The notes under the pieces are model-generated. The model was given only the letters and a program-made list of their open reading frames with translations. It was not told the DNA's origin and did not search any database. Source: Escherichia phage Lw1. From it: 64,000 bases of DNA. The stretch's first letter is position 1; each line of letters opens with the position of its first letter. This document shows positions 2,271-30,773 of this stretch, in pieces. Position numbers and translations under genes: made by a program. Where the stretch lies: sequence record KC801932; one strand, 5' to 3'.

Positions 2271-4084
2271 AACAAGAAATTATTATAGGTAACGTGGTTG
2301 ATGACGGCGCTGGCGATTACTTACGCCGTGGTGGTCAAAAAACAAACGCGAACTTTACCGAATTATATGAAAAGCTGGGTGACGGGGAAATCCCTCACCC
2401 AGCGGGTGCGTGGAAAACGCATTCCGCTCCTACATTGAACCCTATTTTTGGTGATTCATGGGCGCTGAATACCAGTAACAACCGTATTACTGTAAACCTC
2501 CCTAAAGGGGGCGTAAGCGATTATAACAAGGTTATTCGTCTGCGTGATGTTTGGAGTAAATGGGCGGTTAACAACGTGCGTATCGTTCCGGCAACGGGAG
2601 ACACCATCAAAGGTTCACCAACTTACAAAGAACTGTACAAAGATTTCATGGATGTTGAACTGGTTTATTGTGCTCCTGGGCGTTGGGAATACGTCGAGAA
2701 CAAACAGGTTGACAAAATAACAACTTCGGATCTGGCTACCGTAGCGAAAGAAACCTATATCGCAACTCAGGGACAGACAGACTTCCCGAATGTGTTCGGT
2801 CCTGGCAACATGTACAACGTTCGTGCTCTCGAAGTCTACTATCGTGGTAACTTGCTGTACATCGACGATAAGAACGGCTTTAATGAAGCAAACAGTGATT
2901 ACGGTTCGCCTGGGGCAACTGCGGGGCAACTCGTAGAACTGGATGGAACCAACATACGCCTTAAACGTCCCTGTAACGCTGGTGACACGCTTCAATTTGT
3001 CACCTATATGGATGGTATAGCAACATGGCGTTCGACGTATGAAGCGCATACAATGCGCGTATACAACACTGGAGACACTGAACTTGTGAGCGTACCTGGT
3101 GAAATCTGGGTTGGCGATCTGGCTAACAAGAAAGAATTCACCACTGCTGAATTTGGTATCAGTTCCCGTGTGTTGATTAACCCGAATTCATTCGAACTGC
3201 TGCTGAACGGTCGTCAGCTTGTAAAAGCAGGTGATGCGGATCTTCCTACGTTTGTTTGTGAAGGTGCGGAAGGTTATGATGAAGATAGCTGTTTGGCTAA
3301 CTCCGGTTTATGGGTTCCGTCTGGACAGGATTACAGTCTAATCTTTGTTAACTCTATTGTGACTGGGATTAAGTTTCATCAGGCACTGGAAACCCGCGAT
3401 GTGGTAACAATCCGTTGGTTCAATAACGATATCGGAACCGTAATGGAATGGGACGGCGTAGGCGGTATTAAAGAGCATACGGATAAACTGTATCTGAATA
3501 ACGAAGACGAATTGACTTTGGTTAATCAGATTGAATATACAGACTACAACAACCCGTCACAAAAAACAATGCGTAAGGTTGCAGATCCTTTCGTTGGTCG
3601 TCTGTTGGATTTGCAAGCGTTTTTCGATGTGATTCACCCTATTGGGACAATTTACGAAAACGCACACAACGACGCAAACCCAGGCGATTATATGGGATTT
3701 GGTATCTGGACACGATATGCAGAAGGGATGTTTATTGCTGGTTGGACTACCGATGCAGCAGATAGCGATTTTGGGCTGAACAATAACGATCTGGATGGTT
3801 CCGGTCAACCTACACACACATCAGGTGGTACTGGTGGTGAACGCGGCTACGAAATCAAACCGATCAACGTTCCACAAATCGAATCTACCGATAAAGTTCT
3901 GATTAAGGACGATAACGGGATCATTATCATTGGTGGTTGTCAGGTTGACCCAGATGCAACAGGACCAGGATACACTAAATACCGTGAGGATGTATTGAAA
4001 GTAAATCAGGGTAATACTACTCCTGATAAGCTGAAAACGCTCCCTCCGTATATTACTGCACATCGCTGGATAAGGGTAGCATAA
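2267..4084 (+). CDS. 10: baseplate wedge protein gp10
   Basis: 605 aa; N-terminus IGNVVDDGAGDYLRRGG and C-terminus YTKYRED...RWIRVA match recalled T4 gp10; start overlaps gp9 stop. Confidence 0.85.
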   Translation: MKQEIIIGNVVDDGAGDYLRRGGQKTNANFTELYEKLGDGEIPHPAGAWKTHSAPTLNPIFGDSWALNTSNNRITVNLPKGGVSDYNKVIRLRDVWSKWAVNNVRIVPATGDTIKGSPTYKELYKDFMDVELVYCAPGRWEYVENKQVDKITTSDLATVAKETYIATQGQTDFPNVFGPGNMYNVRALEVYYRGNLLYIDDKNGFNEANSDYGSPGATAGQLVELDGTNIRLKRPCNAGDTLQFVTYMDGIATWRSTYEAHTMRVYNTGDTELVSVPGEIWVGDLANKKEFTTAEFGISSRVLINPNSFELLLNGRQLVKAGDADLPTFVCEGAEGYDEDSCLANSGLWVPSGQDYSLIFVNSIVTGIKFHQALETRDVVTIRWFNNDIGTVMEWDGVGGIKEHTDKLYLNNEDELTLVNQIEYTDYNNPSQKTMRKVADPFVGRLLDLQAFFDVIHPIGTIYENAHNDANPGDYMGFGIWTRYAEGMFIAGWTTDAADSDFGLNNNDLDGSGQPTHTSGGTGGERGYEIKPINVPQIESTDKVLIKDDNGIIIIGGCQVDPDATGPGYTKYREDVLKVNQGNTTPDKLKTLPPYITAHRWIRVA

Positions 4085-4746
4085 TGACACAATTTATTTC
4101 AAAGACAAGGGAGGGGGCGAAAGTCCCTTCTCGTGAAGCAGACTTTTTGCAATATGAAATGGGTACGAAAGAACCCCTTATTGGTGGTAAACGTACCATC
4201 GGCGGTGCAAACGTTGATCAGCTTCGCAAAGGGATAGACTATCCCAACGTACAATCAGCAATCGATGACCTGTATTCTCTGACTCAACAGATCCCGATTA
4301 ACGGGGTTATCATGATGACAGAAGACAGTCCACCGACCGCTGTTCAGCAGGTAGAAACAATCACGTTTGATGGAACTGTACAAAATCCAGATCCAGACCA
4401 AACGAAAGCAACCGTTCATGTTTATGGCTTTCCGTTTGTATTCGATAACACAACGAACGCCTCTACGGTATGCGAAACAGTATTCAACAAGTTTACTGAA
4501 TTTGTCAACGACGAAAAATATTTCGATCTGGTTACGCGTAAAGGATTGAACGGGGAAATTCTGGAAGTTCGTTTTATTGATGCGGTTCCACATCCGGTAA
4601 CTAACGCAACAGAAAACGGGATCTCTATGGTTGGTGTAATCGACGTACAGGCGCGTTCTGGTTACGGTACGTGGTCGAAACTGGGTGAGATTGATCTTGC
4701 TGTAACTCCACCTGTTCCGATTTATTATTTCAAACGTATTGCGTAA
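4084..4746 (+). CDS. 11: baseplate wedge protein gp11
   Basis: 220 aa; C-terminal GYGTWSKLG...YYFKRIA resembles T4 gp11 C-terminus; synteny. Confidence 0.8.
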   Translation: MTQFISKTREGAKVPSREADFLQYEMGTKEPLIGGKRTIGGANVDQLRKGIDYPNVQSAIDDLYSLTQQIPINGVIMMTEDSPPTAVQQVETITFDGTVQNPDPDQTKATVHVYGFPFVFDNTTNASTVCETVFNKFTEFVNDEKYFDLVTRKGLNGEILEVRFIDAVPHPVTNATENGISMVGVIDVQARSGYGTWSKLGEIDLAVTPPVPIYYFKRIA

Positions 4747-4755
4747 GGATAACCA

Positions 4756-6147
4756 ATGAGTAACAACACAATTAACCACGTAAGCGATGCGTCAGTTTAC
4801 GTGACTTTCGATCCGGCTGGTACGCAATGGCCTTCGACGTTTACCAACGTACAGCAAGCCCTAGCCTCTATAGGCTCATGGGCGCGTGAAGATGTGGGTT
4901 TGCCTAACGCTGCCCCTGGTGTGCGTGGTATCGCTGCTATTGCTACCGAGGCGATGATTGACGCAGGTACTGACACCGAAACGATCGTTACTCCAGCGCT
5001 GTTGGCATATCGTTTACAGAATCCTCATGCGTCACAAACTGTATGGGGTTATACCCGTTATGCGACCGATGCAGAAGCAACCACAATCACTAACGATTTG
5101 GTTTCTGTAACTCCGCGTTCTGTTGATGTTATTTTCAACACCAGACAAGCAACAGAAACTGTATGGGGTTCTGCGAAACTGTCAACTACAGCACAAGCAA
5201 CATCAGGTACTGATGACACAACCGCAATGACTCCATTGAAGGTTAAACAAGCGATCTCCGCTCTGGTTCCGGTTCAATCTAACGCAACGGAAAGTTCGTT
5301 CGGTTTGGTTCAGTTGGCTACGGTTGCAGAAGTCCGCGCAGGTACTATCCGCGATGGATTTGCAATTTCACCATATACGTTTATTCGTCTGAATGCAACA
5401 GAATCCGATCTAGGTATTATTCGAATAGCTTCACAGGGTGAAGTCAACACAGGCGCTGATGATACAAAAGCTGTTACCCCGCTGAAACTGGCTAACTTGA
5501 AAGGTTCTGGTAGCGCGTTTGGTTTGGTTAAATTATCAACAGATGTAAACACAGGGCTGGCGAACACAGCGCTTTCTGCTGGTGCTAACGTGGTTCCGAG
5601 CAACCGTGATAGTGCAATTACTGGTGGTGCTCTGTATCAGGGTTCAGTTACTGGTGCTAATAAATACCAAACACATAGCGACGTTGAAGCAAATATTCCT
5701 ATTGGGTGTATGATGCTCGCGGCATTCAACTCAGATTACGGAAACCTGTTTATCGCAAACGGTCGCGCGATGAATAGAAACGCAAACCCAGAACTATTTG
5801 CACGTATTGGCTACGCATATGGCGGTAGTGGTGATATTTTCAACCTCCCAGATATGCGCGGGGTTGCTGCTCGTGGTTTCGATGCGGGACGTGGGTTAGA
5901 TCCTGGTCGCGGGTTTGGTACATATCAGGCCGATGCGTTTGCGTATCACGAACATAACCTACAGATGATTTTGCTGAACGGCGGTAATATTCCATCAAGT
6001 CAGGCTGTTTATGAACTGAAATGGGCCAAGAAAAATGACCAACGAATCTATGATTTAGATCCGAACTATAGCAAAGCTAAGGGTGTTGGTGCTAACGAAA
6101 CGCGAATGAAAAACGTTGCGGTCAACTATGTAATTCGAGTACGATAA
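4756..6147 (+). CDS. 12: short tail fibre protein gp12
   Basis: 463 aa; repeated A-x-x-G-T/A-DDT-x-A-x-TP fibre repeats; C-terminus NVAVNYVIRVR resembles gp12/gp37 C-terminal receptor-binding region; synteny. Confidence 0.8.
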   Translation: MSNNTINHVSDASVYVTFDPAGTQWPSTFTNVQQALASIGSWAREDVGLPNAAPGVRGIAAIATEAMIDAGTDTETIVTPALLAYRLQNPHASQTVWGYTRYATDAEATTITNDLVSVTPRSVDVIFNTRQATETVWGSAKLSTTAQATSGTDDTTAMTPLKVKQAISALVPVQSNATESSFGLVQLATVAEVRAGTIRDGFAISPYTFIRLNATESDLGIIRIASQGEVNTGADDTKAVTPLKLANLKGSGSAFGLVKLSTDVNTGLANTALSAGANVVPSNRDSAITGGALYQGSVTGANKYQTHSDVEANIPIGCMMLAAFNSDYGNLFIANGRAMNRNANPELFARIGYAYGGSGDIFNLPDMRGVAARGFDAGRGLDPGRGFGTYQADAFAYHEHNLQMILLNGGNIPSSQAVYELKWAKKNDQRIYDLDPNYSKAKGVGANETRMKNVAVNYVIRVR

Positions 6148-6159
6148 AGGGGTTAATCC

Positions 6160-8448
6160 ATGATTTCAAAACTTAACCCGTTACCAAAGATCCCGTTTGT
6201 TGATGGTGTCCCTTCGGACACCACACAAACCCCGATCAGTTGGATTCTTAACGGTGAGACTCTCGACGGGGCCAAAACAAAGGTCACTAGCGAGGGTTCT
6301 TTAAACAGATGCGGCGTTCTGGTTCAAAAGAACGCGGTGCAATTGGAAACAAACACCATTACGCAAACGGCAAAAATCAACGAAGTTATCGATCAAGTTA
6401 ACCTCATTAGTGAAAACCTCGCGGCTATTTCTGATGAAAGCGTGATCGAAAAACTGGATCAGGTCGTTGCTGATGTGGAAGTGTTAAAAGTCGATATGAC
6501 TGCGGTTCAAGGTTCTACCGCAAGCAATACCCTGAAAATTCAGGATCTCGATAAAGATATCGGGACATGGGATGCTACAACAGATCCAAAACACCGAACC
6601 ATTCGCAAAGATATTATTTTTCTGAAAGGGGAAATGGGCGCATATCCTGGATTTAATCAGGACGGTGACGTAGATCCTACTTCAACTGGCTCTGGAATGA
6701 AATACAAAATCATGACGAACGCGCAAGCGATTTCGATTCATGAAGGGCGTATTACCAGACTGGAAGACGATTGGGCCAACTCAGATGTAGGCCATTTAAC
6801 TGATGAAGTTACCGACTTGCGTAATGAAATGGGGCCGAAACATTTAGCAACGTTTGAATCGGTGTACGTTCGTCTGAATAAAATTGGTACGGATATCACT
6901 GGGATTAATACCGAACTGACAGAAATCAACCAATATATCGGTCGTACTGGTACAGGTGGTTCTGGAAGTATTTCTGCTCGAATGACTACGGCAGAAACGA
7001 ATATTGTTACTCTGCAAACGCAGATGAATGATTCTTCCGTTGGTGTTCTTCCTCGCGTAATTTCTCTTGAAAACCAAGTTGGGAATTCGCAGGTTCCGGG
7101 TAGTATTCGTTATGATATCAGTAATATCAAACGTGACATTAGCGACCTGAATATGGTTGTTGGTGAATCAAGCGATGAAGGGCTACGGGGCGAAATGGCT
7201 CAGGTTATGTCCGATATCGGTACAGATTCACAACCTACAAGCATTAAAGGCCGTCTGCTTAACGTAGAGAATACGCAGCGCGACGATCACCAGCGTTTGA
7301 TTGATGTCGAATCTATTGTTGGTAACACCTCAAGCGGACTTGTTGCGGCTAACATCGCAATGGGTAAAGCGGTTTATGGTGATGCAACCAGTTCAGATCC
7401 GTTCCTCAAAGACGGTATTCAGAAAACGACTCGCGATAGCAAAACTGCAATTGGTGTCAACACTACAGGTTCTGAAACTGGAATCTATAAGTTGATTTCC
7501 GATCTGACTGCTCGTGTTGCTGCTCTGGAAAGTGGTTCTGGTAGTGATCTCGAACAGCGTGTTTCCGATCTTGAAGTCAATAAAGCATCGCATCAGGACG
7601 TTACAAACGCACTGGTTCCGTATATTACTGAAACTGAGGCCGATATCAAGTACGAACCGAAGAAGATTCCGCTTGCGTTCACTCAAAACCTCGTTGGTCG
7701 AAATGATTATATCGAAGGTGATGACATTTCTCTGATGGTTACTGTATCTGGTGGTAAAGTCCCTTATGCGTACCAGTGGAAGAAAGACAACGCGAACGTA
7801 GGTACGAACGCATCAAGTTTGATGATCCAGACCATCACATCGGCTAACGCTGGCGTGTATAAGGTTGAAGTAACTGACGCAGATAACACGGTTATCACTT
7901 CTAACGAATTGACAATTGCTGTTTATCCGGTTCCTCAGTTCGATACTAACCTGGCTGATAAATCAGTGGTTGACGGTGATCCTCTGACTCTGGAAGTTGT
8001 GTATAGCGGCGGTAAACCTTCGTACACTTACGAGTGGTTCAAAGATAACTCTGTTATCTCTGGGGCAACATCAGCAACATTTACCAAATCTGCGGTTACA
8101 AGTGCCGATGCTGGTGAATACTATGTTTCTGTGACTGACTCGATGAACAACCAAAATGATTCAGTGAAAGCAAATGTGACGGTAACACCACGTCCTGCAC
8201 TGGCATTCACTACGGATCTGAGTTCTACTAAATCATATAGCACAGGTGCTGATATGGACCTTGCTGTTGTCGTAACTGGTGGTAAAACACCATATACGTA
8301 CAAATGGTTTAAAGACACTGCGGAAATTTCCGGTCAGACAGGCGCAAGCCTTACCACTGTAGCAGAAGATGGAGTGTATAAAGTCGAAGTGACTGATGCA
8401 CTAACGACTAAAATCACATCAACTGAATGCACGGTAACTGTTGCATAA
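6160..8448 (+). CDS. wac: fibritin (whisker) with three C-terminal Ig-like repeats
   Basis: 762 aa; N-terminus LPKIPFVDGVP...ISWILNGE...SEGSLNR matches recalled T4 wac N-terminus; long serine/threonine-rich coiled-coil segments; last 260 aa are three tandem 85-aa repeats (GGK-x-PY-x-Y-x-W-x-KD ... G-x-Y-x-V-x-VTD). Confidence 0.75.
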   Translation: MISKLNPLPKIPFVDGVPSDTTQTPISWILNGETLDGAKTKVTSEGSLNRCGVLVQKNAVQLETNTITQTAKINEVIDQVNLISENLAAISDESVIEKLDQVVADVEVLKVDMTAVQGSTASNTLKIQDLDKDIGTWDATTDPKHRTIRKDIIFLKGEMGAYPGFNQDGDVDPTSTGSGMKYKIMTNAQAISIHEGRITRLEDDWANSDVGHLTDEVTDLRNEMGPKHLATFESVYVRLNKIGTDITGINTELTEINQYIGRTGTGGSGSISARMTTAETNIVTLQTQMNDSSVGVLPRVISLENQVGNSQVPGSIRYDISNIKRDISDLNMVVGESSDEGLRGEMAQVMSDIGTDSQPTSIKGRLLNVENTQRDDHQRLIDVESIVGNTSSGLVAANIAMGKAVYGDATSSDPFLKDGIQKTTRDSKTAIGVNTTGSETGIYKLISDLTARVAALESGSGSDLEQRVSDLEVNKASHQDVTNALVPYITETEADIKYEPKKIPLAFTQNLVGRNDYIEGDDISLMVTVSGGKVPYAYQWKKDNANVGTNASSLMIQTITSANAGVYKVEVTDADNTVITSNELTIAVYPVPQFDTNLADKSVVDGDPLTLEVVYSGGKPSYTYEWFKDNSVISGATSATFTKSAVTSADAGEYYVSVTDSMNNQNDSVKANVTVTPRPALAFTTDLSSTKSYSTGADMDLAVVVTGGKTPYTYKWFKDTAEISGQTGASLTTVAEDGVYKVEVTDALTTKITSTECTVTVA

Positions 8449-8483: not shown

Positions 8484-9407
8484 ATGATTACGAACAACCC
8501 TGAACAATTGAAGGATGAAATTCTTCGTCGTCTGGGCGCACCAATCATCAAAATCGAAATCACACAAGACCAGATTTACGATTGCATTCAACGCGCACTG
8601 GATCTGTATGCGGAATATCATTACAACGGAACAAACAAAAGCTATATTATTCTGACACTGGGCGAAGATAACCCACGCAACGTATTTGATTTGAGCAAAG
8701 AACACATTTTCGCGATCACAAAAGTATTGCGTACAAATATCGGTTCCCTGGTTTCTATGGATGGTACAGCGGTTTATCCGTGGTTTACCGATTTCCTGAT
8801 GGGGCTTACTGGTGGTTCATTGGGCGGTCGCTGTTCATCCAGTGTATACGGTATGAACGCATACGGTGCGGATCTGGGGTATTTTACACAGATGATGTCC
8901 TATCAGCGCTCGATGCAAGATTTGCTGGCTCCGTTGCCTGATTACTGGTACAACGATGACACTGGTCAATTTTGCGCATGGGGTAAAGTCAACTACGGTG
9001 ATATCATTGTTATTGAAGCGATGGTCCGTTCTTTCGTTGACGTTCCTAGTGCCGTAGGAAGCGTTGCAGGATACGCTACAGCGGGTTCTAACGCAGTAGA
9101 AGACCAATCTATAGCCGACATCTACGATAACCCTTATAACGCGGTTGTGGGCGGTGTACGTGCGGGGCAGGGAACAACTGTTACTGGTGGAACCTCTGCA
9201 TATAACAACCGTTGGGTAAAAGACTACTCGACCGCGCTGGTAAAAGAAATCAACGGACAAATTCTGGCTAAGTTCCAGGGTATGCAATTGCCTGGTGGTG
9301 TTGCTCCTGATGGAACGCGACTGATCCAGGAAGCAGAAACCAAATTACAAGGATTGCGCGACGAACTGATTTCTATGTCTGACGCAGTTCCTATTATTAT
9401 GGTGTAG
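8484..9407 (+). CDS. 13: neck protein gp13
   Basis: 307 aa; LRRLGAPIIKIEITQDQIYDCIQRALDLY and YNNRWVKDYSTALVKEINGQILA match recalled T4 gp13. Confidence 0.85.
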   Translation: MITNNPEQLKDEILRRLGAPIIKIEITQDQIYDCIQRALDLYAEYHYNGTNKSYIILTLGEDNPRNVFDLSKEHIFAITKVLRTNIGSLVSMDGTAVYPWFTDFLMGLTGGSLGGRCSSSVYGMNAYGADLGYFTQMMSYQRSMQDLLAPLPDYWYNDDTGQFCAWGKVNYGDIIVIEAMVRSFVDVPSAVGSVAGYATAGSNAVEDQSIADIYDNPYNAVVGGVRAGQGTTVTGGTSAYNNRWVKDYSTALVKEINGQILAKFQGMQLPGGVAPDGTRLIQEAETKLQGLRDELISMSDAVPIIMV

Positions 9408-9415
9408 GGGGAATA

Positions 9416-10162
9416 ATGCAAAACTGGGATGAAAGTTTATTCGCTCAGTTGTCAACGGGAGAGGGAGTTGATCGCAACTTAAAGGATCAAGTTACTAACC
9501 CGTATGTAAACTGGTACAAATATAACCCGACACAACAGCTACACGATTCACTGACAGCAGAATCCATACAGATGAAATCACCTGATATGTATTATGTCAG
9601 ACGTGAATTTGTGAATATAGATAAAATACTGGGTGAAGACCGAGAATCTAAATTTACGAAATCGTGGAAGATTGCGGCATATATTGAATCATACGCCAAC
9701 TACGAAGGACAGCGGGACTTCTTTAGCAAATTTGGGTTGAGTTCTAACGACGAAATGACGCTGGTACTGAATCCGCGTTTATTTGCACATCAAACTGATG
9801 GTGGTATTCCTGTGTTGGGGGATTTGATTTATTTCCCTATGGACAACAGCCTGTTTGAAATTACATGGGTGGAAGCAGATCCGTTCTATCAGTTCGGTGA
9901 TCGTCCTCAACGTAAAATCAACCTGGCTAAATTCATCTACACGGGCGAAGAATTGGCTCCTGAATTGCAGCGAAACGAGGGAATCCATATTGAACCTGAT
10001 GCAGAACTGGATCTTGAACCTATTCGAAATCTCGACGGGCTGGCAGATATCAACATTGAACAGTACGAAGAAGACAAAGAATTTGAAAAAGAAAGTGACG
10101 AGTTCATCGATTCTTTTGATGTTGTCAACGGACGCGGATCTCCATTCGCAACGTTGCCCTAA
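9416..10162 (+). CDS. 14: neck protein gp14
   Basis: 248 aa; NPYVNWYKYNPTQQLHDSLTAESIQM and DLIYFPMDNSLFEITWVE match recalled T4 gp14. Confidence 0.85.
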   Translation: MQNWDESLFAQLSTGEGVDRNLKDQVTNPYVNWYKYNPTQQLHDSLTAESIQMKSPDMYYVRREFVNIDKILGEDRESKFTKSWKIAAYIESYANYEGQRDFFSKFGLSSNDEMTLVLNPRLFAHQTDGGIPVLGDLIYFPMDNSLFEITWVEADPFYQFGDRPQRKINLAKFIYTGEELAPELQRNEGIHIEPDAELDLEPIRNLDGLADINIEQYEEDKEFEKESDEFIDSFDVVNGRGSPFATLP

Positions 10163-14127: not shown

Positions 14128-16119
14128 ATGGCTTTACAATCTCCAGGTATTGAAACCAAAGAAACATCGGTACAATCTACCGTTGTTCGAAATTCAACTG
14201 GTCGCGCTGCCATTGTTGGTAAATTTTCATGGGGGCCAGCTTATCAGATCCGTCAGATTTCTAACGAAGTCGAACTGGTAAACTATTTTGGTTCCCCAGA
14301 CAACCTAACCGCTGATTATTTCATGAGTGCTGTTAACTTCTTGCAGTACGGTAATGATCTCCGTGTGGTTCGTGTTGTCGATAAAGATGCCGCAAAAAAC
14401 GCAAGCGCAATTTTTAACCAGATCAAAACAACCATTGCTTCGCAGGGTTCCAACTACACCGTTGGCGACGTAATTAAGGTAAAATATAGCAACAACGTAG
14501 TTGAAGAAAATGGTAAAGTGTCAAAAGTTGACAGTAACGGCAAAATCCTTGCGGTAGTCATCCCAAGCGAAAAAATCGTTGCTCGTGCAAAACAGATCGG
14601 GACTTATCCAGATATTTCTACTGGCTGGACTACTGAAATCGTTTCTCAGTCTTCTGGTGTGTCTGCGTCAATCACGATCGATGGTATCGAAAGCGATTCT
14701 GGTATCACTCTGCTGAACCTGGATATTGCTAAAGAAACCATTCAAGGAACTGCGTTCCAGACACTGACCCAGAAATACCAGATCCCATCTGTTGTGGCTC
14801 TGTATCCTGGCGAACTGGGTTCTACTGTAGAGGTGGAGATTATCTCCAAAGCTGCTTACGATTCTGGCGCTATGATTTCCGGTTTCCCTTCTGGGATCTC
14901 CGTTAAAAACAGCGGTCGCTCTGTGATGACTTATGGTCCACAGACCGAAAACCAGTACGCTTTTGTTGTGCGTCGTGGTGGTATTGTACAAGAATCTTTC
15001 ATCGTGTCAACAGAAAAAACCGACAAAGATATCTACGGCGTAAACATCTATATGGATGACTTTTTCGCTAACGGTGGTTCACAGTACGTATTCGGTACTT
15101 CTATGAACTGGCCTAAAGGCTTCTCCGGTATTCTAGAATTTGGTGGTGGTTTGTCCTCAAACGACACCGTAGGCGCTGATGAACTGATGACTGGTTGGGA
15201 TATGTTCGCTGATCGCGAAGCCCTTCACGTCCCGCTGCTGATTGCTGGTGCTTGTGCTGGTGAAACCGTAGAAGTAATGTCTACTGTTCAGAAGCATGTT
15301 ATCTCGATCGGTGACGAACGTCAGGATTGTACTGTGTTTGTATCGCCTCCGCGTTCTCTTCTGGTGAACATTCCTCTTGCTCAGGCAGTGGATAACATCG
15401 TTGAATGGCGTATGGGATATACAATCAGTGGTAACACTCCGGTAGACAACAACCTGAACGTAAGTTCAAGCTATGGCTTCCTGGATGGTAACTATAAATA
15501 TCAGTATGATAAATACAATGACGTGAACCGCTGGGTTCCGCTGGCAGGTGATATCGCTGGCCTGTGTGTTTACACTGATAGCGTTGCGCAACCGTGGATG
15601 TCTCCGGCTGGTTACAACCGTGGTCAGATCCGTAACTGCATTAAACTGGCTATTGAACCGCGTACTGCACACCGTGACGCGATGTATCAAGTTCAGATTA
15701 ACCCGGTAACAGGTTTTGCAGGTGGCTCTGGTTTCGTTCTGTTCGGTGATAAAACACTGACTAATGTTCCGAGTCCGTTCGATCGTATCAACGTTCGTCG
15801 CTTGTTCAACATGATCAAGAAAGACATCGGGGATAACGCGAAATACAAACTGTTTGAAAACAACGACGATTTCACCCGTGCTTCGTTCCGTATGGATACT
15901 GGTCAGTACATGACGAATATTCGTGCGCTGGGTGGTTGCTATGATTACCGTGTAATCTGCGATACCACGAACAACACGCCGGATGTAATTGATCGTAACG
16001 AGTTTGTAGCGACCATTTACGTGAAACCGCCACGTTCTATCAACTACATCACTCTGAACTTCGTAGCAACGTCTACAGGCGCAGATTTCGATGAATTGGT
16101 AGGGCCACAAGCCGTATAA
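14128..16119 (+). CDS. 18: tail sheath protein gp18
   Basis: 663 aa; N-terminus SPGIETKETSVQSTVV and C-terminus RSINYITLNFVATSTGADFDEL match recalled T4 gp18. Confidence 0.92.
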   Translation: MALQSPGIETKETSVQSTVVRNSTGRAAIVGKFSWGPAYQIRQISNEVELVNYFGSPDNLTADYFMSAVNFLQYGNDLRVVRVVDKDAAKNASAIFNQIKTTIASQGSNYTVGDVIKVKYSNNVVEENGKVSKVDSNGKILAVVIPSEKIVARAKQIGTYPDISTGWTTEIVSQSSGVSASITIDGIESDSGITLLNLDIAKETIQGTAFQTLTQKYQIPSVVALYPGELGSTVEVEIISKAAYDSGAMISGFPSGISVKNSGRSVMTYGPQTENQYAFVVRRGGIVQESFIVSTEKTDKDIYGVNIYMDDFFANGGSQYVFGTSMNWPKGFSGILEFGGGLSSNDTVGADELMTGWDMFADREALHVPLLIAGACAGETVEVMSTVQKHVISIGDERQDCTVFVSPPRSLLVNIPLAQAVDNIVEWRMGYTISGNTPVDNNLNVSSSYGFLDGNYKYQYDKYNDVNRWVPLAGDIAGLCVYTDSVAQPWMSPAGYNRGQIRNCIKLAIEPRTAHRDAMYQVQINPVTGFAGGSGFVLFGDKTLTNVPSPFDRINVRRLFNMIKKDIGDNAKYKLFENNDDFTRASFRMDTGQYMTNIRALGGCYDYRVICDTTNNTPDVIDRNEFVATIYVKPPRSINYITLNFVATSTGADFDELVGPQAV

Positions 16120-18535: not shown

Positions 18536-18943
18536 ATGCAACTCGAACTCGAAGATATTAGTACCGAACTTATCGAACCCCATTTAACCGAAGCGAAAGC
18601 CCGTGTTGATATTCTGGGGATTGATGAAGGTACAATTAAAATTATCGAAAATTTGGCGGTCGATGAACCTCATTTGGCCCTGGCGATGATGTCCATTGTT
18701 GAGGGTTTGAGTTTAGATGAAGTCATTGTTAAACACGTCGATTCTCGCGGTAATGTGGAACGTAAAAAGGACCGCAAAACCCGTGAACGTAACGCGTATC
18801 AAACAACTGGTCTTACTAAATCTCAACGTCGCCAGATCGCGCGTCGTGCGATGAAAACAAAACGTGCGAATCCTTCTATTACAACCCGCGCACAACGTAA
18901 GCGCAAAAAAGCGCTCCGTAAACGCGCCGCATTAGGGCTATAA
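18536..18943 (+). CDS. 68: prohead core protein gp68-like
   Basis: 135 aa; basic C-terminal tail; position as in T4. Confidence 0.6.
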   Translation: MQLELEDISTELIEPHLTEAKARVDILGIDEGTIKIIENLAVDEPHLALAMMSIVEGLSLDEVIVKHVDSRGNVERKKDRKTRERNAYQTTGLTKSQRRQIARRAMKTKRANPSITTRAQRKRKKALRKRAALGL

Positions 18944-18945
18944 AT

Positions 18946-19593
18946 ATGAATGAATCCCAACTCAATGAAAACGGCGATATGCTGCTAATCGAGGAATGGG
19001 GTTTACCTTGTGCGGATATTTCCGATTCGATTTTAGAATCGGTCGGTGCGTCTAAAGACGGTAAACTTCGGATTGAAGGTATTTTCCTACAGGCTGAAAA
19101 AGTAAACCGTAATAAACGACTGTACCCGAAAAAAGTATTAGAAGAAGCAGTAAATGATTATATCAGAACTCAAGTTAATACCCGTCAAGCACTGGGTGAA
19201 ATGAATCACCCTCCGCGCCCGAATGTGGACCCGCGAAATGCTTGCATCCTCATTGAAAAAATGTGGTGGAAAGGTAATGACGTTTGGGGCCGTGCGGTTG
19301 TTGTCGAAGGTGACAACGCGGATGGTGATAAACTTGCGGCGTTAATTCGTGCTGGTTGGGTTCCTGGTGTTTCTTCTCGCGGACTAGGTAAACTTGCCGA
19401 TTCCGGTAAAGGTTACGGTATCGTACAAGAAGGGTTTAAATTGGCTGTAGGTGTTGATGTAGTTTGGGGGCCAAGCGCTCCAGATGCTTACGTTAAACCA
19501 ATAACCGAATCTCAGCAGACGAAACCGCTTGTTGAGAATATTAGTGCTGATGACGCTTTCAGAAAATTATCTGAACGTTTGAAAGGTCTATAA
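18946..19593 (+). CDS. 21: prohead core scaffold protein and protease gp21
   Basis: 215 aa; position and size match T4 gp21; conserved block GIFLQAEKVNRNKRLYPKKVLEEAV. Confidence 0.85.
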   Translation: MNESQLNENGDMLLIEEWGLPCADISDSILESVGASKDGKLRIEGIFLQAEKVNRNKRLYPKKVLEEAVNDYIRTQVNTRQALGEMNHPPRPNVDPRNACILIEKMWWKGNDVWGRAVVVEGDNADGDKLAALIRAGWVPGVSSRGLGKLADSGKGYGIVQEGFKLAVGVDVVWGPSAPDAYVKPITESQQTKPLVENISADDAFRKLSERLKGL

Positions 19594-20436: not shown

Positions 20437-22017
20437 ATGTCTAAGAAAAACGAATTGATGGAAAAATGGAACGATCTTCTGGAATCTCAGGAAGGTTTAC
20501 CGGATATCGCTACCAAATCCAAAAAACAACTGGTCGCTGCCATTCTGGAAGCACAGGAAAAAGACGCTGAAACCGATCCGGTTTATCGCGACGAAAAAAT
20601 TGTGGAATCCTTCGGTGGTTTCCTGGCAGAAGCAGAAATTGCTGGCGATCATAACTATGACCCGACCAACATCGCTTCTGGTAAATCCAGCGGTGCTATC
20701 ACCAACATCGGTCCTGCTGTAATCGGTATGGTTCGCCGTGCGATCCCTAACCTGATTGCGTTCGACATTTGCGGTGTTCAGCCTATGACTGGTCCTACTG
20801 GTCAGGTGTTCGCTCTCCGTGCTGTCTACGGTAAAGATCCTCTGGCTGGCGGTACTCCGGCAGATGTTCGTGAAGCATTCCATCCGATGTTTGCCCCGGA
20901 TACCATGTATTCTGGTCAGGGTGCTGCACCAAGCAACGGTTTCGCGAAAATCACTACTGGTACTGCAATTGCAACTGGCGCTATCGTTTACCACTTCTTC
21001 GAAGAAACTGGTATTGCGTACTTCCAGAACGTAACTTCTGGTAACGTAACCGTAACTGGTGCTACTCCGGCAGAACTGGACCTGGCTGTTACCGCAGAGA
21101 ACGAAAAAGGTACTCTGGCTGAAATTTCTCAGGCTATGGCTACCAGTGTAGCAGAACTCCAGGAAAACTTCAACGGTTCCAGTTCTAACCCGTGGAACGA
21201 AATGGCTTTCCGTATCGACAAACAGGTTATCGAAGCCCGTAGCCGTCAACTGAAAGCACAGTATTCCGTTGAACTGGCACAGGATCTCCGCGCTGTTCAC
21301 GGTATGGACGCTGACGCAGAACTGTCTGCAATCCTGGCAACTGAAATCATGCTGGAAATCAACCGCGAAATCGTTGATCTGATCAACTTTACCGCGCAGA
21401 TTGGTAAAACTGGTTTCACCAAGACTGTAGGCTCTAAAGCTGGTGCGTTTGACTTCCAAGATCCGGTAGATATTCGCGGCGCTCGTTGGGCTGGTGAAAG
21501 CTACAAAGCTCTGTTGATTCAGATCGACAAAGAAGCGAACGAAATCGCACGTCAAACAGGCCGTGGTGCTGGTAACTTCATCATCGCTTCCCGTAACGTG
21601 GTTTCCGCTCTGGCTCGTATCGACAGCGGTATTACTCCGGCAGGTCAGGGCTTGCAGAAGTCTCTGAACGTTGACACTACCAAAGCGGTATTCGCTGGTG
21701 TTCTGGGTGGCACTTACAAAGTGTACATCGACCAGTACGCTCGTAGCGATTACTTCACCGTTGGCTTCAAGGGTGATAACGAAATGGATGCTGGTATCTA
21801 CTACGCTCCATACGTTGCGCTTACCCCGCTGCGTGGTTCTGATCCGAAGAACTTCCAGCCAGTAATGGGCTTCAAAACTCGTTACGGTATCGGTATCAAC
21901 CCGTTTGCGAACTCTCGCACTCAGGCTCCGGCAGATCGTATCACCTCCGGTATGATCACTAAAGACATGGTCGGCAAAAACGCATACTTCCGTAAAGTAT
22001 ACGTTAAAGGTCTGTAA
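20437..22017 (+). CDS. 23: major capsid protein gp23
   Basis: 526 aa; long near-identical stretches to T4 gp23 (VRRAIPNLIAFDICGVQPM..PTGQVFALRAVYGKDP, EAEIAGDHNYDPTNIASG). Confidence 0.95.
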   Translation: MSKKNELMEKWNDLLESQEGLPDIATKSKKQLVAAILEAQEKDAETDPVYRDEKIVESFGGFLAEAEIAGDHNYDPTNIASGKSSGAITNIGPAVIGMVRRAIPNLIAFDICGVQPMTGPTGQVFALRAVYGKDPLAGGTPADVREAFHPMFAPDTMYSGQGAAPSNGFAKITTGTAIATGAIVYHFFEETGIAYFQNVTSGNVTVTGATPAELDLAVTAENEKGTLAEISQAMATSVAELQENFNGSSSNPWNEMAFRIDKQVIEARSRQLKAQYSVELAQDLRAVHGMDADAELSAILATEIMLEINREIVDLINFTAQIGKTGFTKTVGSKAGAFDFQDPVDIRGARWAGESYKALLIQIDKEANEIARQTGRGAGNFIIASRNVVSALARIDSGITPAGQGLQKSLNVDTTKAVFAGVLGGTYKVYIDQYARSDYFTVGFKGDNEMDAGIYYAPYVALTPLRGSDPKNFQPVMGFKTRYGIGINPFANSRTQAPADRITSGMITKDMVGKNAYFRKVYVKGL

Positions 22018-22109: not shown

Positions 22110-23408
22110 ATGAGTGAAAAACATTACACAATTCACAAGTTGATGCGTCAGTCTACGCTTCCCCCTGGTAAACGCGAAAAGGTTATCAACGAAGCAACTG
22201 GAACGACCGACATCAACGTACAGAACACGCGCCCAGAACTGGTTTCTTTGACTCGCGCTGTTAACAACCTGATCTATCATGAACTGGTTGCTGTACAAGA
22301 AACAAATTTACCCGTAGCAACTCTGTTTGGTGTTCGCTATCGTAACCCTAACGGCGACATGACTTTCTCCAGCGCTGCAACCTATTCAGGCCGCATATCT
22401 GGACGTACAGACATCGACGATATCGATCTGGCTAAGGCATACGTCAAAGGCGATTTATTCAAGCACGATGTCACTGACGTTGTGTATGAGGTCATCGAAC
22501 CTGTAACGCTAAACGCGCTGGATACTGATAAAGACACCGCAATCATGAAAGCTGTGTTCCAAAGTAAAATTCGTTTGGTTAGCGAAGCCGCAGACACTTC
22601 AAAATATGAAACCAGTGAAGATATCGCATCAACCTCTTTCCAGATGGATCGCTGGAACATTCCGGTTCGTTCACGTAAGTTTAAAACTGAAATGACCGTG
22701 GAATTGATGCAGGATCTGGAAGCAAACCAGTTTGAAGCCGATGGGGTAATTGAAGATATCCTGGGTACGGTTGCAAGCGAAGAAGTCAACAAAGATATTA
22801 TTCAGACGCTGATCACCGTTTCCAAACGATATAACGTTGATGGTGTAGTTGTCGATGGTATTTTTGACGGTACAACCGCATACACTGCGAAGGATGCTCC
22901 AGCATTGGGCCGCATACTCTATCAATTAGCGTGTGAAATGGGTCAAGAAATGAATAGAACGACTTCATTTGATGCAACCTACGTCCTCGCTAGTGCTCGC
23001 GTTGTAGGCGTTCTGGCTGCGTCTGGTTGGATGACCGAAACCGACGAACAACACCCGCTGGCAACTGGTAAACTTCAAAACGGTTATTATGTCTATACCG
23101 ACACGAATACACCGTTTGATTATCTGCTTACCGGATGCAAATACGATCTGGGTGATATGGATCACGTAGGTTCTCTGTTCTTCACTCCGTACACCGAAGC
23201 GGATGAAGCAGGTTCAATCAAGGTATCCGTAGATCCTGCATCACTGCAACCGAAAGTTGCTATTCTGATGCGTTACGGTTTATCTGTGAACCCATACACA
23301 ACGGAATCCGACTCTGAACGGTTGACCAAAGGCGATGACTGGTCGAATCTGGCTGGTAAATCCAAACTCAGTCAAATCGTAGGTATTAAATTACCTAAGC
23401 TGGGTTAA
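22110..23408 (+). CDS. 24: capsid vertex protein gp24
   Basis: 432 aa; gp23 paralogue-like fold signatures (YGLSVNPYT near the C-terminus parallels gp23 YGIGINPFA); synteny. Confidence 0.85.
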   Translation: MSEKHYTIHKLMRQSTLPPGKREKVINEATGTTDINVQNTRPELVSLTRAVNNLIYHELVAVQETNLPVATLFGVRYRNPNGDMTFSSAATYSGRISGRTDIDDIDLAKAYVKGDLFKHDVTDVVYEVIEPVTLNALDTDKDTAIMKAVFQSKIRLVSEAADTSKYETSEDIASTSFQMDRWNIPVRSRKFKTEMTVELMQDLEANQFEADGVIEDILGTVASEEVNKDIIQTLITVSKRYNVDGVVVDGIFDGTTAYTAKDAPALGRILYQLACEMGQEMNRTTSFDATYVLASARVVGVLAASGWMTETDEQHPLATGKLQNGYYVYTDTNTPFDYLLTGCKYDLGDMDHVGSLFFTPYTEADEAGSIKVSVDPASLQPKVAILMRYGLSVNPYTTESDSERLTKGDDWSNLAGKSKLSQIVGIKLPKLG

Positions 23409-26530: not shown

Positions 26531-26602
26531 TATGATTACCCTATGTACATTGTATATAGGTATTTATGCAATAAATATTGGATAAACCCACTGGAGATAC
26601 CA

Positions 26603-27256
26603 ATGAAAATTGATTACGAATTAGTAGAAGGGTTCCGTGCTCTGTCTACAAAAGAACAAAAAGGCGCACTGGCTGACTATGCGCAAAGCACCTTCGATGT
26701 AAAACTGAACAAACAGAAATCATTCGATAACATGCTGGCTGATCTGGAAGCTGCTGTACCAGCGGAAGAAGATAAACCAGAACTGTTGATTGATTCGCCT
26801 GAACCGGAAATTCTGATTAAAGTTGGTGATATAACAGTCACTTCTGACGCAATGAAAGTTGAGATTGATTCGCCTGTTGATCTATCTGGTGACTTCATGC
26901 AATACGTTAAAGACGTTGCTCCTTGTGTCGCTGATCAGATCACGCTAGTTACCGATGATGTAGAACCTCCTGTAAGCGATTCTAACGAGTCCAAACCCGA
27001 TATGGCATGGTTGGATTGTTTTAGCCCTACAATCGTTCTGATGGGGCGTAGCGCTCGTTCTAATGGGTATTACACATGCCCCTGGTGGATCTACGATTGG
27101 ATTAAGAAAAATCCAGATTGGCACAAAGATCCTGACCAGTGTCCGCACTACAGCGCACGGGATACTCTCAAATCGCTGGTGTACTACATCAAGCGTGATG
27201 GACAAGTTACGGTGCGTGAAACCCGCAACAGTAGTTTCGACACCTTCAAATTTTAG
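26603..27256 (+). CDS. hypothetical protein
   Basis: 217 aa from ATG 26603 preceded by GGAG; acidic central region; no recognised family. Confidence 0.5.
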   Translation: MKIDYELVEGFRALSTKEQKGALADYAQSTFDVKLNKQKSFDNMLADLEAAVPAEEDKPELLIDSPEPEILIKVGDITVTSDAMKVEIDSPVDLSGDFMQYVKDVAPCVADQITLVTDDVEPPVSDSNESKPDMAWLDCFSPTIVLMGRSARSNGYYTCPWWIYDWIKKNPDWHKDPDQCPHYSARDTLKSLVYYIKRDGQVTVRETRNSSFDTFKF

Positions 27257-27278: not shown

Positions 27279-27307
27279 TTGACCGTTACCCTGCTTTCGC
27301 GTATATT
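27279..27307 (+). promoter_or_regulatory. sigma70-like promoter TTGACC-N17-TATATT
   Basis: Hexamers at 27279-27284 and 27302-27307, upstream of ORF 27357. Confidence 0.5.
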
Positions 27308-27674: not shown

Positions 27675-27682
27675 AATTTGAA

Positions 27683-27706
27683 AGGGGCTACGGCCCCTTT
27701 TTTCAT
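27683..27706 (+). terminator. rho-independent terminator
   Basis: GGGGC-tacg-GCCCC followed by TTTTTT. Confidence 0.7.
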
Positions 27707-27715
27707 AGGTGAATT

Positions 27716-28279
27716 ATGTTGAACCATGAATGTTTGAAAGATTTAAGTGACGGTAAAGAGATCGGGAACGTTATATTTCTCGATATTGATGGAGTTCTAA
27801 ATAATATGCGGTCTATGAAATTCGGTGAACATATGGACATCGAATGTGCGCGACACTTGCGCCGGATCGTGAACCATGCAGATTGTGATATCGTTGTTTC
27901 TTCAACATGGCGTATAGGAAACACGACACACAACCTACGTGAAATTCTGTACCCCTGGGGGCTTTATCGCGTTATCGGTCGAACTTGTAGTAATATGCAG
28001 GGTGCTTACCAACGTGGGGATGAAATCAAGGCATGGATCGACGCTTTCGGATGTAAGAATTATCTTATTCTGGATGATGATCGCGACATGTTACAGGAAC
28101 AGAATGAACACTTCATTCGAACCGATCCTTACATTGGGTTGACAGAAGAACAATCAACCTTTGCGATCCGTAATATATTTGGAATAACGACCCCGTTTTG
28201 TCCTGAATGCAATGGCTACGGGCGCGTGAATGAATATGATAAATGCGGTAGCTGCAACGGTAAAATTTTACGTCTATAA
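27716..28279 (+). CDS. HAD-superfamily phosphatase-like protein with C-terminal zinc ribbon
   Basis: 187 aa; N-terminal VIFLDIDGVLNN is the HAD motif I (DxDGxL); C-terminal C-P-E-C...C-G-S-C. Confidence 0.55.
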   Translation: MLNHECLKDLSDGKEIGNVIFLDIDGVLNNMRSMKFGEHMDIECARHLRRIVNHADCDIVVSSTWRIGNTTHNLREILYPWGLYRVIGRTCSNMQGAYQRGDEIKAWIDAFGCKNYLILDDDRDMLQEQNEHFIRTDPYIGLTEEQSTFAIRNIFGITTPFCPECNGYGRVNEYDKCGSCNGKILRL

Positions 28280-28282
28280 ATA
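28275..28282 (+). promoter_or_regulatory. T4-type late promoter core TATAAATA
   Basis: Exact TATAAATA, 25 nt upstream of ORF 28307. Confidence 0.5.
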
Positions 28283-28306
28283 TAGAAAAATTAAGAGGTT
28301 TCAACA

Positions 28307-28810
28307 ATGGCTACTGAAAAATGGACTACGGTTCACCCTATCCCGTGGCGTAATACCAGTTTTACCTATCTCCCGTGGTGGATCTTCGATATTATCGTTG
28401 CTGCTAATACGGCTGGTGATGACTGGCGAGGTTACGCCGAAGAAAAATATGCGAAAGAATTCGACACTCTGAAACAGGCATACATCGATTATACCGATGT
28501 TGATTTCATCGAATCTCGCAACGGTTATCTGTATAAACTGAGTGATTTTACTCCTGCTGATCCTGTCGTAACAATTACACCAAAAACCGCTCCTGCTGAT
28601 TTCAAAGTAGGTGATGCTGACCTAGCTGCAACTGATCTGTTTACCATCGATCCTTCTGGTACAGCAATGACTCTGAGTGTTGACTCTTCCGGTCATGGTT
28701 CTATCGTTGGTGGTAAACTCCATGCGGTTAGTGAAGGTGATGTTGTCGTAACAGCAACCTCTGGATCTGTTACTGCAACTCTGACGGTAAACGTTAAACC
28801 TGCACTATAA
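28307..28810 (+). CDS. hypothetical protein with C-terminal bacterial Ig-like (Big_2-type) domain
   Basis: 167 aa; C-terminal 80 aa (FKVGDADLAATDLFTIDPSG...LHAVSEGDVVVTATSGSVTATLTVNV) fits the Big_2 pattern. Confidence 0.6.
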   Translation: MATEKWTTVHPIPWRNTSFTYLPWWIFDIIVAANTAGDDWRGYAEEKYAKEFDTLKQAYIDYTDVDFIESRNGYLYKLSDFTPADPVVTITPKTAPADFKVGDADLAATDLFTIDPSGTAMTLSVDSSGHGSIVGGKLHAVSEGDVVVTATSGSVTATLTVNVKPAL

Positions 28811-28827: not shown

Positions 28828-29328
28828 ATGCTGCTATTTGAATTCAATGATGTATTCGCAAAATTCAGCGATGCAATCGAAGCTAAATTTGGCAAACGTC
28901 CACAAAACATGACAGAAACAGAATATAACGATGCTGTTTCGTCCCTGGTTCGTACAGATTTCTATGAAAAGCTGGCGATCGAGGTTTTGGGCTGGGATAT
29001 GATGAAATGGGGTATGACTTATCGCGATCGCGAAGTCGGTTTTATTCTCGTCAACGAAGTCAAAAGCCCGTCCTGGGTGAATAACCAGAAAATAGCATAT
29101 ATGGATAAAGTATGTGCGGAAATGGGGATTGTTCGACTGGACTTCTGGACTTGCCGTGATCTGAACGAACTGAAAGGTCACGCGTACCGTTGCCCGTTGA
29201 TTTCTCGCAATGAGAAACACCGTCAAGCATGGGATAGCGCTGGGAAATATCGTAGCGTGTTCCTGAACGACGACATTAACATCACTATTCAGGACGTGAA
29301 TCGAGCGTTCACTGAATACCATCCATAA
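28828..29328 (+). CDS. hypothetical protein
   Basis: 166 aa ORF with AGGT upstream; no recognised family. Confidence 0.5.
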   Translation: MLLFEFNDVFAKFSDAIEAKFGKRPQNMTETEYNDAVSSLVRTDFYEKLAIEVLGWDMMKWGMTYRDREVGFILVNEVKSPSWVNNQKIAYMDKVCAEMGIVRLDFWTCRDLNELKGHAYRCPLISRNEKHRQAWDSAGKYRSVFLNDDINITIQDVNRAFTEYHP

Positions 29329-29330
29329 TA

Positions 29331-29360
29331 AAAAAGGGAACCGCAATGGTTCCCTTTCTT
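29331..29360. terminator. bidirectional terminator between convergent genes
   Basis: AAAAA-GGGAACC-gcaat-GGTTCCC-TTTCTT. Confidence 0.6.
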
Positions 29361-29828
29361 CTAGGCTATTTTTCTTATTTCTTTCAAGGCTTCTTCTTTG
29401 CTTCCAACGAAGAGGATCGCTTTACCTCCGGCTTTTCTGAATGGCAACACGGCTTTTGCTCTGTCGTCTATCAGTATGCCCTGGCTCGCGTAGGCTGCTT
29501 TGTCTTTGCTGCTTTTGGTGTAGTGGAATTCAGGTAAGTATCCCAATTCTCTCAACAGCGCTTTTTTCTTCTGTTCTGCTACTTCTTCTGAATCATACTT
29601 CCCAACACTGGTCAAGATCGCAACCTGTCCCAATGTTTTCAGGTGGTGGAACAATTCAAACCCTTCTTTTAAAGGTTTCAGGTTTTCGTAGAAGTCGGTT
29701 TTTGCGATTGCTTGTTTAGCCTTTTTCAGTTCTTCTTCTGGCATTCTCGCCGGATCACCATACATCGGTATGAAAGAACCTTCCCAATCAAACAGTACAC
29801 CATCCATATCAAAGAAAAACTTATTCAT
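29361..29828 (-). CDS. HAD-family 5'(3')-deoxyribonucleotidase-like protein
   Basis: 155 aa from ATG at 29828 (GAGG upstream); N-terminal FFFDMDGVLFDW matches the DMDGVL motif of 5'(3')-deoxyribonucleotidases; the track ORF extends to 29915 but overlaps the upstream gene. Confidence 0.6.
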   Translation of the reverse strand: MNKFFFDMDGVLFDWEGSFIPMYGDPARMPEEELKKAKQAIAKTDFYENLKPLKEGFELFHHLKTLGQVAILTSVGKYDSEEVAEQKKKALLRELGYLPEFHYTKSSKDKAAYASQGILIDDRAKAVLPFRKAGGKAILFVGSKEEALKEIRKIA

Positions 29829-30743: not shown

Positions 30744-30773
30744 TTGACATCGTTTTGCTGATGGATTTATAGT
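30744..30773 (+). promoter_or_regulatory. sigma70-like promoter TTGACA-N18-TATAGT
   Basis: Hexamers at 30744-30749 and 30768-30773, in the divergent intergenic region upstream of ORF 30824. Confidence 0.45.

Follow-up and report, generated by a model that had tools for sequence, protein, structure and literature searches.

A hoc-like gene with a T4-type late promoter motif and an anchor-first domain order in Escherichia phage Lw1

The hoc-like gene and its neighborhood

The window, which is the whole 64,000-nucleotide stretch of Escherichia phage Lw1 DNA that we analyzed (KC801932), carries a hoc-like gene on its plus strand at 28307..28810 (ATG at 28307, end of the stop codon at 28810), encoding a 167-residue protein of 18.1 kDa with a pI of 4.5. 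Its ribosome-binding site, AAGAGG (28293..28298, plus strand), lies 8 nt 5' of the ATG, is kept in every aligned relative, and is annotated as such in phage Miller. The protein matched phrog_11091 ("Hoc-like head decoration") with an E value of 1.9e-113, and a Pfam scan of it gave zero matches at E<=1. A 1.7-kb region of the locus matched 146 phage records, the best being those of the Citrobacter phages KKP_3664, Xman, CfP1, and Miller, followed by a second group from Enterobacter, Cronobacter, and Klebsiella phages; the records inspected from both groups carry a Pseudotevenvirus classification.

Upstream of this gene lie the genes for gp23 (20437..22017) and gp24 (22110..23408), in a window that also encodes the sheath, tube, portal, protease, and scaffold, and then uvsY, uvsW (minus strand), and inh. 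The last of these (26603..27256, plus strand; phrog_1051, E 5.2e-68) specifies the prohead protease inhibitor, a minor head protein. Both here and in Miller, gp24, uvsY, and uvsW are followed by inh, a 105-residue ORF, a HAD_SAK_2/zinc-ribbon gene, hoc, and a deoxyribonucleotidase gene, with srd and rnlB further along, and the corresponding order in T4 is 24, rnlB, 24.2, 24.3, hoc, and inh, and then uvsW. Two genes thus stand between inh and hoc in the window, and the distance from gp24 to hoc is 4.9 kb, which contradicts the earlier note's view of a gene far from the capsid block. Because the gene order is common with T4, we regard the ORF as the positional ortholog of T4 hoc. T4 hoc begins 9 nt after inh, and the exact motif TATAAATA is absent from the 70 nt upstream of it, whereas in Lw1 insertions and a terminator lie between inh and hoc, and hoc has a promoter motif of its own; this accounts for the arrangement that was first noticed. 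The region is a conserved late inh-hoc module carrying non-structural insertions, rather than the purely early accessory region for which it had been taken.

The first of the immediate neighbors (27716..28279, plus strand) encodes a HAD_SAK_2 phosphatase-like protein (PF18143, E 9.6e-30) with a C-terminal DnaJ-type CxxC zinc ribbon, and its stop codon falls inside the promoter motif. The second (28828..29328, plus strand) belongs to the 5'-3' deoxyribonucleotidase family (phrog_2643, E 3.6e-54). Since it starts 17 nt past the hoc stop, with no intervening terminator, it is probably cotranscribed with hoc. The unit made up of the HAD, hoc, and deoxyribonucleotidase genes is bounded upstream by an intrinsic terminator hairpin with a U-run (27680..27701, plus strand; -15.7 kcal/mol, z -3.2), which follows the 105-residue ORF, and is closed by a second hairpin (29333..29357; -15.3 kcal/mol, z -3.7), shared with a convergent minus-strand gene. 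That gene (29364-29825) is a paralog of the 28828-29328 gene, so that two 5'-3' deoxyribonucleotidase-family genes converge on one common terminator. Both hairpins were missed by our promoter/terminator scanner and were found by folding and from the annotation of relatives; their orthologous sites are annotated as terminators in Miller and CfP1.

Sigma70-like promoters had been ascribed to the neighbors of hoc, and such sites do occur in the region, at 27279-27307 (plus strand, 10/12 matches), where one precedes the 105-residue ORF, at 29881-29853 (minus strand, 11/12), and at 30744-30773 (11/12). However, neither immediate neighbor has a sigma70-like site of its own, and the 14 sites in the window represent no excess over the 12.2 in shuffled sequences. 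As hoc can be reached by read-through from the 27279 promoter, its expression may not be purely late.

The late promoter motif

The T4-type late promoter core TATAAATA occupies 28275..28282 on the plus strand, exactly where the earlier note had placed it; the TAA that terminates the upstream gene (28277-28279) falls within it. Between its last base and the ATG lie 24 nt (28307-28282 = 25), and transcription would start near 28288 if the motif is taken as positions -13 to -6. The window contains nine copies of TATAAATA, where 2.72 would be expected by chance; in 100 shuffled sequences, the count always stayed below nine. Six of the nine sit 15-42 nt 5' of start codons, namely those of tail tube gp19, portal gp20, scaffold gp22, the hoc-like ORF, and gp34 and gp37 (the proximal and distal long tail fibers), with the products named via PHROGs. 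This excess, together with the placement before structural genes, indicates that the motif acts here like a T4-type late promoter; in front of hoc it is placed such that transcription would start 5' of the ribosome-binding site.

Further copies lie elsewhere. Two of them do not stand 5' of an ORF start: one, at 18939-18946, directly abuts the gp21 protease ATG at 18946 (T4 gene 21 contains an internal start), and another, at 15493-15500, falls within the sheath gene. A minus-strand copy at 32696-32689 was set aside as a chance occurrence, because it precedes only a low-complexity 73-residue ORF with no family match.

The motif is found at the identical offset in Miller, CfP1, KKP_3664, RB43, and gene 232 of the Slopekvirus Matisse. 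In RB43, Nolan et al. (2006; PMC1524935) predicted a late promoter, Pl:143295, at 143295-143337 on the plus strand, which lies just 5' of RB43 hoc (143352). These authors also reported that either A or T can occupy position -13 in RB43-type phages, and that the late motif of phage Aeh1 is CTAAATA (PMC1524935). In the clade of leB, leE, Taquito, Entb_46, and phi1_146015, TATAAATA is replaced 5' of hoc by TCTAAATA (2969-2976 of one member's segment and the same position in the other four), which includes CTAAATA, the Aeh1-type late motif; the exact TATAAATA is thus dispensable in some relatives.

Given that TATAAATA overlaps a stop codon, and that TCTAAATA in the leB/Taquito clade comes with the same TAA, the motif might be an incidental AT-rich stretch over that stop, with hoc expressed early or middle by read-through from the sigma70-like 10/12 site at 27279-27307, 1 kb upstream on the same strand. 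We consider this unlikely, as the strong 27680-27701 hairpin stands between that site and hoc, and as TATAAATA is kept in Matisse and RB43 despite their diverged flanks. The independent prediction of the RB43 promoter by a hidden Markov model, and the position of six of the nine exact motifs shortly before late structural genes, likewise argue for a late promoter.

Near-consensus late motifs also stand back to back in the divergent uvsW/inh intergenic region (26561-26577). On the plus strand, AATAAATA (26570-26577) lies 26 nt 5' of the inh ATG, and T4 inh is also preceded by AATAAATA; on the minus strand, CATAAATA (26568-26561) lies ∼30 nt 5' of the uvsW GTG, and the list of Nolan et al. includes an RB43 late promoter before uvsW (PMC1524935). 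Neither gp55 nor gp33 was found in the window. For gp33, which in T4 is located 5' of gp34, eight ORFs, including five immediately 5' of gp34, were scanned against PHROGs without yielding a gp33-like annotation; at 45.6-49.3 kb, the ORFs had matches only to a thioredoxin domain or to PHROGs that carry no assigned function.

The capsid-binding anchor and the Ig-like domain

An AlphaFold2 model of the protein, built on a 23-sequence alignment (mean pLDDT 86), comprises an N-terminal alpha/beta domain and a C-terminal beta-sandwich domain, and its structural matches in BFVD were the Hoc proteins of RB43, Acj61, and Acj9, as well as BIG2-domain virion proteins. The N-terminal domain (28307..28555, plus strand; residues 1-83) is homologous to approximately residues 293-362 of T4 Hoc, by (i) a phmmer search against all PDB sequences, in which T4 Hoc was the sole match (5vf3_Z, E 2e-9), with residues 8-76 aligned to T4 Hoc 293-362 and ESRNGY identical; by (ii) Foldseek, which matched the N-terminal half to T4 Hoc 8t1x_X (TMt 0.63, 34% identity); and by (iii) the long Hoc profile of PHROGs, to whose extreme C terminus (1066-1144 of 1150) residues 6-82 align. 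No column of the 23-sequence family alignment is invariant outside residues 1-83, the Ig half being the variable one. A check of the N-terminal 85 residues for a binding module, which the earlier note had proposed, has therefore yielded a capsid-binding one, corresponding to T4 Hoc 281-376 and including the ESRNG loop.

Fokine et al. (2023, section 3.4; PMC10385173) identified which residues of T4 Hoc touch gp23* or maintain the conformation of the ESRNG loop. In the phmmer alignment, His295, Arg300, Trp309/Trp310, Asp313, Glu355-Gly359, and Tyr360 of T4 Hoc are retained as H10, R15, W24/W25, D28, E69-G73, and Y74 of the Lw1 protein, respectively. The AlphaFold2 model has low confidence at residues 1-3 and 10-17, where T4 contact residues align. 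On the capsid side, the gp23 loop G332-R350 (21430..21486, plus strand), the putative docking site at the hexamer center, shares 17 of 19 residues with its T4 counterpart, G326-R344, including Asp336, Pro337, and Arg344, the contact residues in T4 being those given in PMC10385173. As the contact residues are kept on both the anchor and gp23, we infer on good grounds that the anchor would dock at the center of expanded gp23* hexamers.

The C-terminal domain (28562..28807, plus strand; residues ∼86-167) is a Big_2-like Ig domain, which would constitute the displayed module, and is modeled as one beta-sandwich with a pLDDT of 91-97. The best PDB matches of this half in Foldseek were the Big_2-CBM56 structures 7quz/7r3t (28-30% identity), the Big domains of LigA/LigB, and the C-terminal domain of lambda gpV. 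In Pfam terms, PF02368 (Big_2) was matched weakly by 7 of 23 family members (best E 2e-4), and the Lw1 ORF itself stays below the sequence threshold. The assignment, which rests on structure prediction and on Pfam scans of relatives, indicates that the original "Big_2-type" call is right at the fold level, although it does not hold for the ORF itself at the level of Pfam sequence matches.

The C-terminal ∼60 residues of Inh (27056-27244, residues 152-214) resemble the Hoc capsid-binding domain, with PWWIYDWI ... DW ... RETRNSSF in Inh corresponding to PWWIFDII ... DW ... IESRNGY in Hoc (phrog_1149, E 2.9e-6; phmmer against T4 Hoc, E 0.028; hhalign, E 8e-5, 61% probability). Such a Hoc-like C terminus is seen in Inh of both Lw1 and T4 (9328-10008 of the T4 segment, minus strand), and the resemblance goes unmentioned in PMC10385173. 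In Inh of RB43 (5377-6297 of its segment), a ∼29-residue stretch (…VVVDVSQDFMDYVKDVAPEVADQIKLVPD…) is tandemly repeated fourfold; Inh of the window, Miller, Matisse, and T4 lacks this repeat. A tblastn search of the window with the anchor found no second hoc copy, the sole other match being the weak similarity to Inh. The resemblance means that the anchor fold is not exclusive to external decoration, but use of the Hoc-type domain in a prohead-associated or assembly protein like Inh, or at another virion site, is highly improbable, since the ORF retains the full ESRNG loop, Arg15, and Asp28, which in T4 Hoc contact gp23 or shape the loop (Inh has ETRNS), its partner is an Ig domain, typical of exposed virion proteins, and the outer docking loop of gp23 is conserved.

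T4 Hoc (5vf3_Z, 8t1x_X) and the Lw1 protein share a homologous anchor with the ESRNG loop, the Trp pair, and the Arg, an Ig-type display domain, acidity (pI 4.74 and 4.5, respectively), a neighborhood with inh, uvsW, and rnlB, and late-promoter control, which for Lw1 is predicted. They differ in that T4 Hoc has a C-terminal anchor and three Ig domains of the I-set/Ig_3-like class, whereas the Lw1 protein places its anchor first, reversing the canonical order, and carries one Ig domain of the Big_2-like class; moreover, T4 hoc is without an exact TATAAATA in the 70 nt before it, and in Lw1 non-structural genes lie between inh and hoc. A comparable architecture is known from T5 pb10, a monomer of ∼164 residues whose capsid-binding domain is N-terminal and is joined by a flexible linker to an exposed Ig-like domain at the C terminus; pb10 binds at hexamer centers, and its anchor is described as alpha-helical (PMC5292684). 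The likeness to pb10, which was missing from the 50 best PDB structures matched by the ORF in Foldseek, concerns architecture only, and the hexamer placement of the Lw1 protein is a predicted one.

Taken together, these comparisons identify the 167-residue ORF as the Hoc ortholog of a Pseudotevenvirus (RB43/Miller group, Straboviridae), which would be expressed late and decorate gp23* hexamers, a reading to which we assign a probability of roughly 85%. Judged from sequence and predicted fold, the relationship to Hoc is one of homology, beyond mere analogy. The earlier proposal of a virion decoration candidate that was Hoc-like in function is thus supported and was, if anything, understated, as the protein is a sequence and fold homolog of the T4 Hoc capsid-binding domain encoded at the T4 hoc position.

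Relatives, domain exchange, and a proposed role

The direct orthologs of the gene, all in phrog_11091, are ORF237w/238w of RB43, CPTMiller_00230 of Miller, and ABCD_0225 of CfP1, which agree with it in locus, promoter, ribosome-binding site, and architecture. They differ in that the window allele is chimeric, CfP1 and KKP_3664 encode two Ig domains, and the RB43 record has an in-frame stop. The number of Ig copies varies inside one species, with 246 residues and two Big_2-like domains in CfP1 and KKP_3664 (2108-2848 and 708-1448 of their segments) and 167 residues and one such domain in Miller (6608-7111 of its segment) and the window. RB43 hoc (143352-143855; 7353-7856 of its segment) is annotated as two small ORFs owing to the stop (…QAYID*TDVDFIESRNGY…); when read through, it is a full one-Ig ortholog with TATAAATA upstream. 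This stop fits dispensability of hoc, but could also be a sequencing or laboratory artifact.

A search with the 85-residue anchor among 1.84 billion cluster representatives found 78 matching clusters, of which ∼66 have a C-terminal anchor and ∼7, all of them the closest relatives, have an N-terminal anchor followed by another domain. The architectures in relatives include the anchor alone, the anchor with one or two Big_2-like domains, and the anchor with an Ig_3-type domain. In Karamvirus and Kanagawavirus, the anchor is joined to a GDSL lipase at another locus. Phages PEi20 (3001-4530 of its segment) and fGh-Ecl01 (3001-4536) encode such proteins of ∼510 residues, with an N-terminal Hoc anchor and a GDSL-lipase-like C terminus, in genes that adjoin gene 39 and have CATAAATA or AATAAATA upstream; the Lw1 anchor is a close relative, with 58% identity to the fGh-Ecl01 protein over residues 1-96. 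The 511-residue Hoc-like protein of the Karamvirus PG7 type (PMC10385173, section 3.6) resembles the Lw1 protein in its N-terminal Hoc anchor, but its cargo is a GDSL lipase/acylhydrolase instead of an Ig domain, and its gene lies near gene 39, outside the inh-hoc locus. This lipase form was the only anchor-first Hoc-like protein found in the literature that we searched. At its hoc locus, the Klebsiella phage Matisse (Slopekvirus; 2457-3276 of its segment) has two Hoc paralogs in tandem: gene 232, with TATAAATA upstream, encodes an Ig domain and then a C-terminal anchor, as in T4, and gene 233 encodes an anchor with a short acidic Pro-rich tail.

The window allele is a mosaic, with a recombination breakpoint at 28520..28540, at the boundary between anchor and Ig domain. 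To the left of it, nucleotide identity is 95-100% to Miller and 78-90% to Taquito; to the right, it is 93-100% to Taquito and 75-92% to Miller. Overall, Miller shares ∼97-98% identity with the window across the promoter, HAD gene, and anchor; across the Ig domain and into the beginning of the following gene, the window instead follows the leB/Taquito clade, at ∼98% identity. The coincidence of the breakpoint with the domain boundary indicates exchange of the display domain. Tentatively, and with somewhat less than even confidence, we suggest that anchor-first Hoc is a recombination-driven capsid display cassette, in which the conserved anchor and its late promoter remain in the genome backbone and the C-terminal cargo is swapped or duplicated at the linker. 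Among the variants observed, the anchor has no cargo, carries one or two Big_2-like domains, or is followed by an Ig_3-type domain or a GDSL lipase.

In the mechanism that we propose, gp55-RNA polymerase would initiate near 28288 late in infection, and the message for hoc and the deoxyribonucleotidase would run to the terminator at 29333-29357. Once the capsid has expanded, each gp23* hexamer center would take up one monomer, docked on the conserved gp23 loop through the ESRNG loop, the Trp pair, and Arg15 of the anchor, with up to about 155 copies, by analogy with T4. A short Pro/Ala linker would project the one acidic Ig domain from the capsid as a knob, in place of the 180-Å fiber of T4. 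The protein would be dispensable, serving probably in weak adhesion to glycans or surfaces, or in virion dispersal, as proposed for T4 Hoc, and its display domain may be exchanged among lineages through recombination at the domain boundary. Our literature search for virion proteomics, cryo-EM, and transcripts of anchor-first Hoc in Pseudotevenvirus and Slopekvirus found none; papers on PMBT63 and ValerieMcCarty were set aside, as they concern T4-type Hoc of other genera and not the anchor-first subfamily.

The gene family, the Hoc annotation (in RB43, Miller, and CfP1), and the late promoter of the RB43 ortholog, predicted in 2006, are already public, so that hoc of this phage is ordinary and of little weight as a discovery. 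Less well described, and a minor novelty, are the reversed domain order, the different Ig class, and the breakpoint at the domain boundary. The analysis has modest value in that it corrects the view of the gene as an orphan in an early region, documents a reverse-order Hoc with a different Ig class in the genus, and shows the domain-boundary breakpoint. As candidate uses, phage-display cargo could be fused to the C terminus of an anchor-first Hoc, and the Ig domain may affect how well therapeutic phages of Enterobacter, Klebsiella, and Citrobacter are retained on mucus or surfaces. If the suggested display cassette is real, related phages would diversify their capsid surface much as they shuffle tail fibers, and the window allele, with its Miller-type anchor and leB-type Ig domain, would be an example caught in the act.
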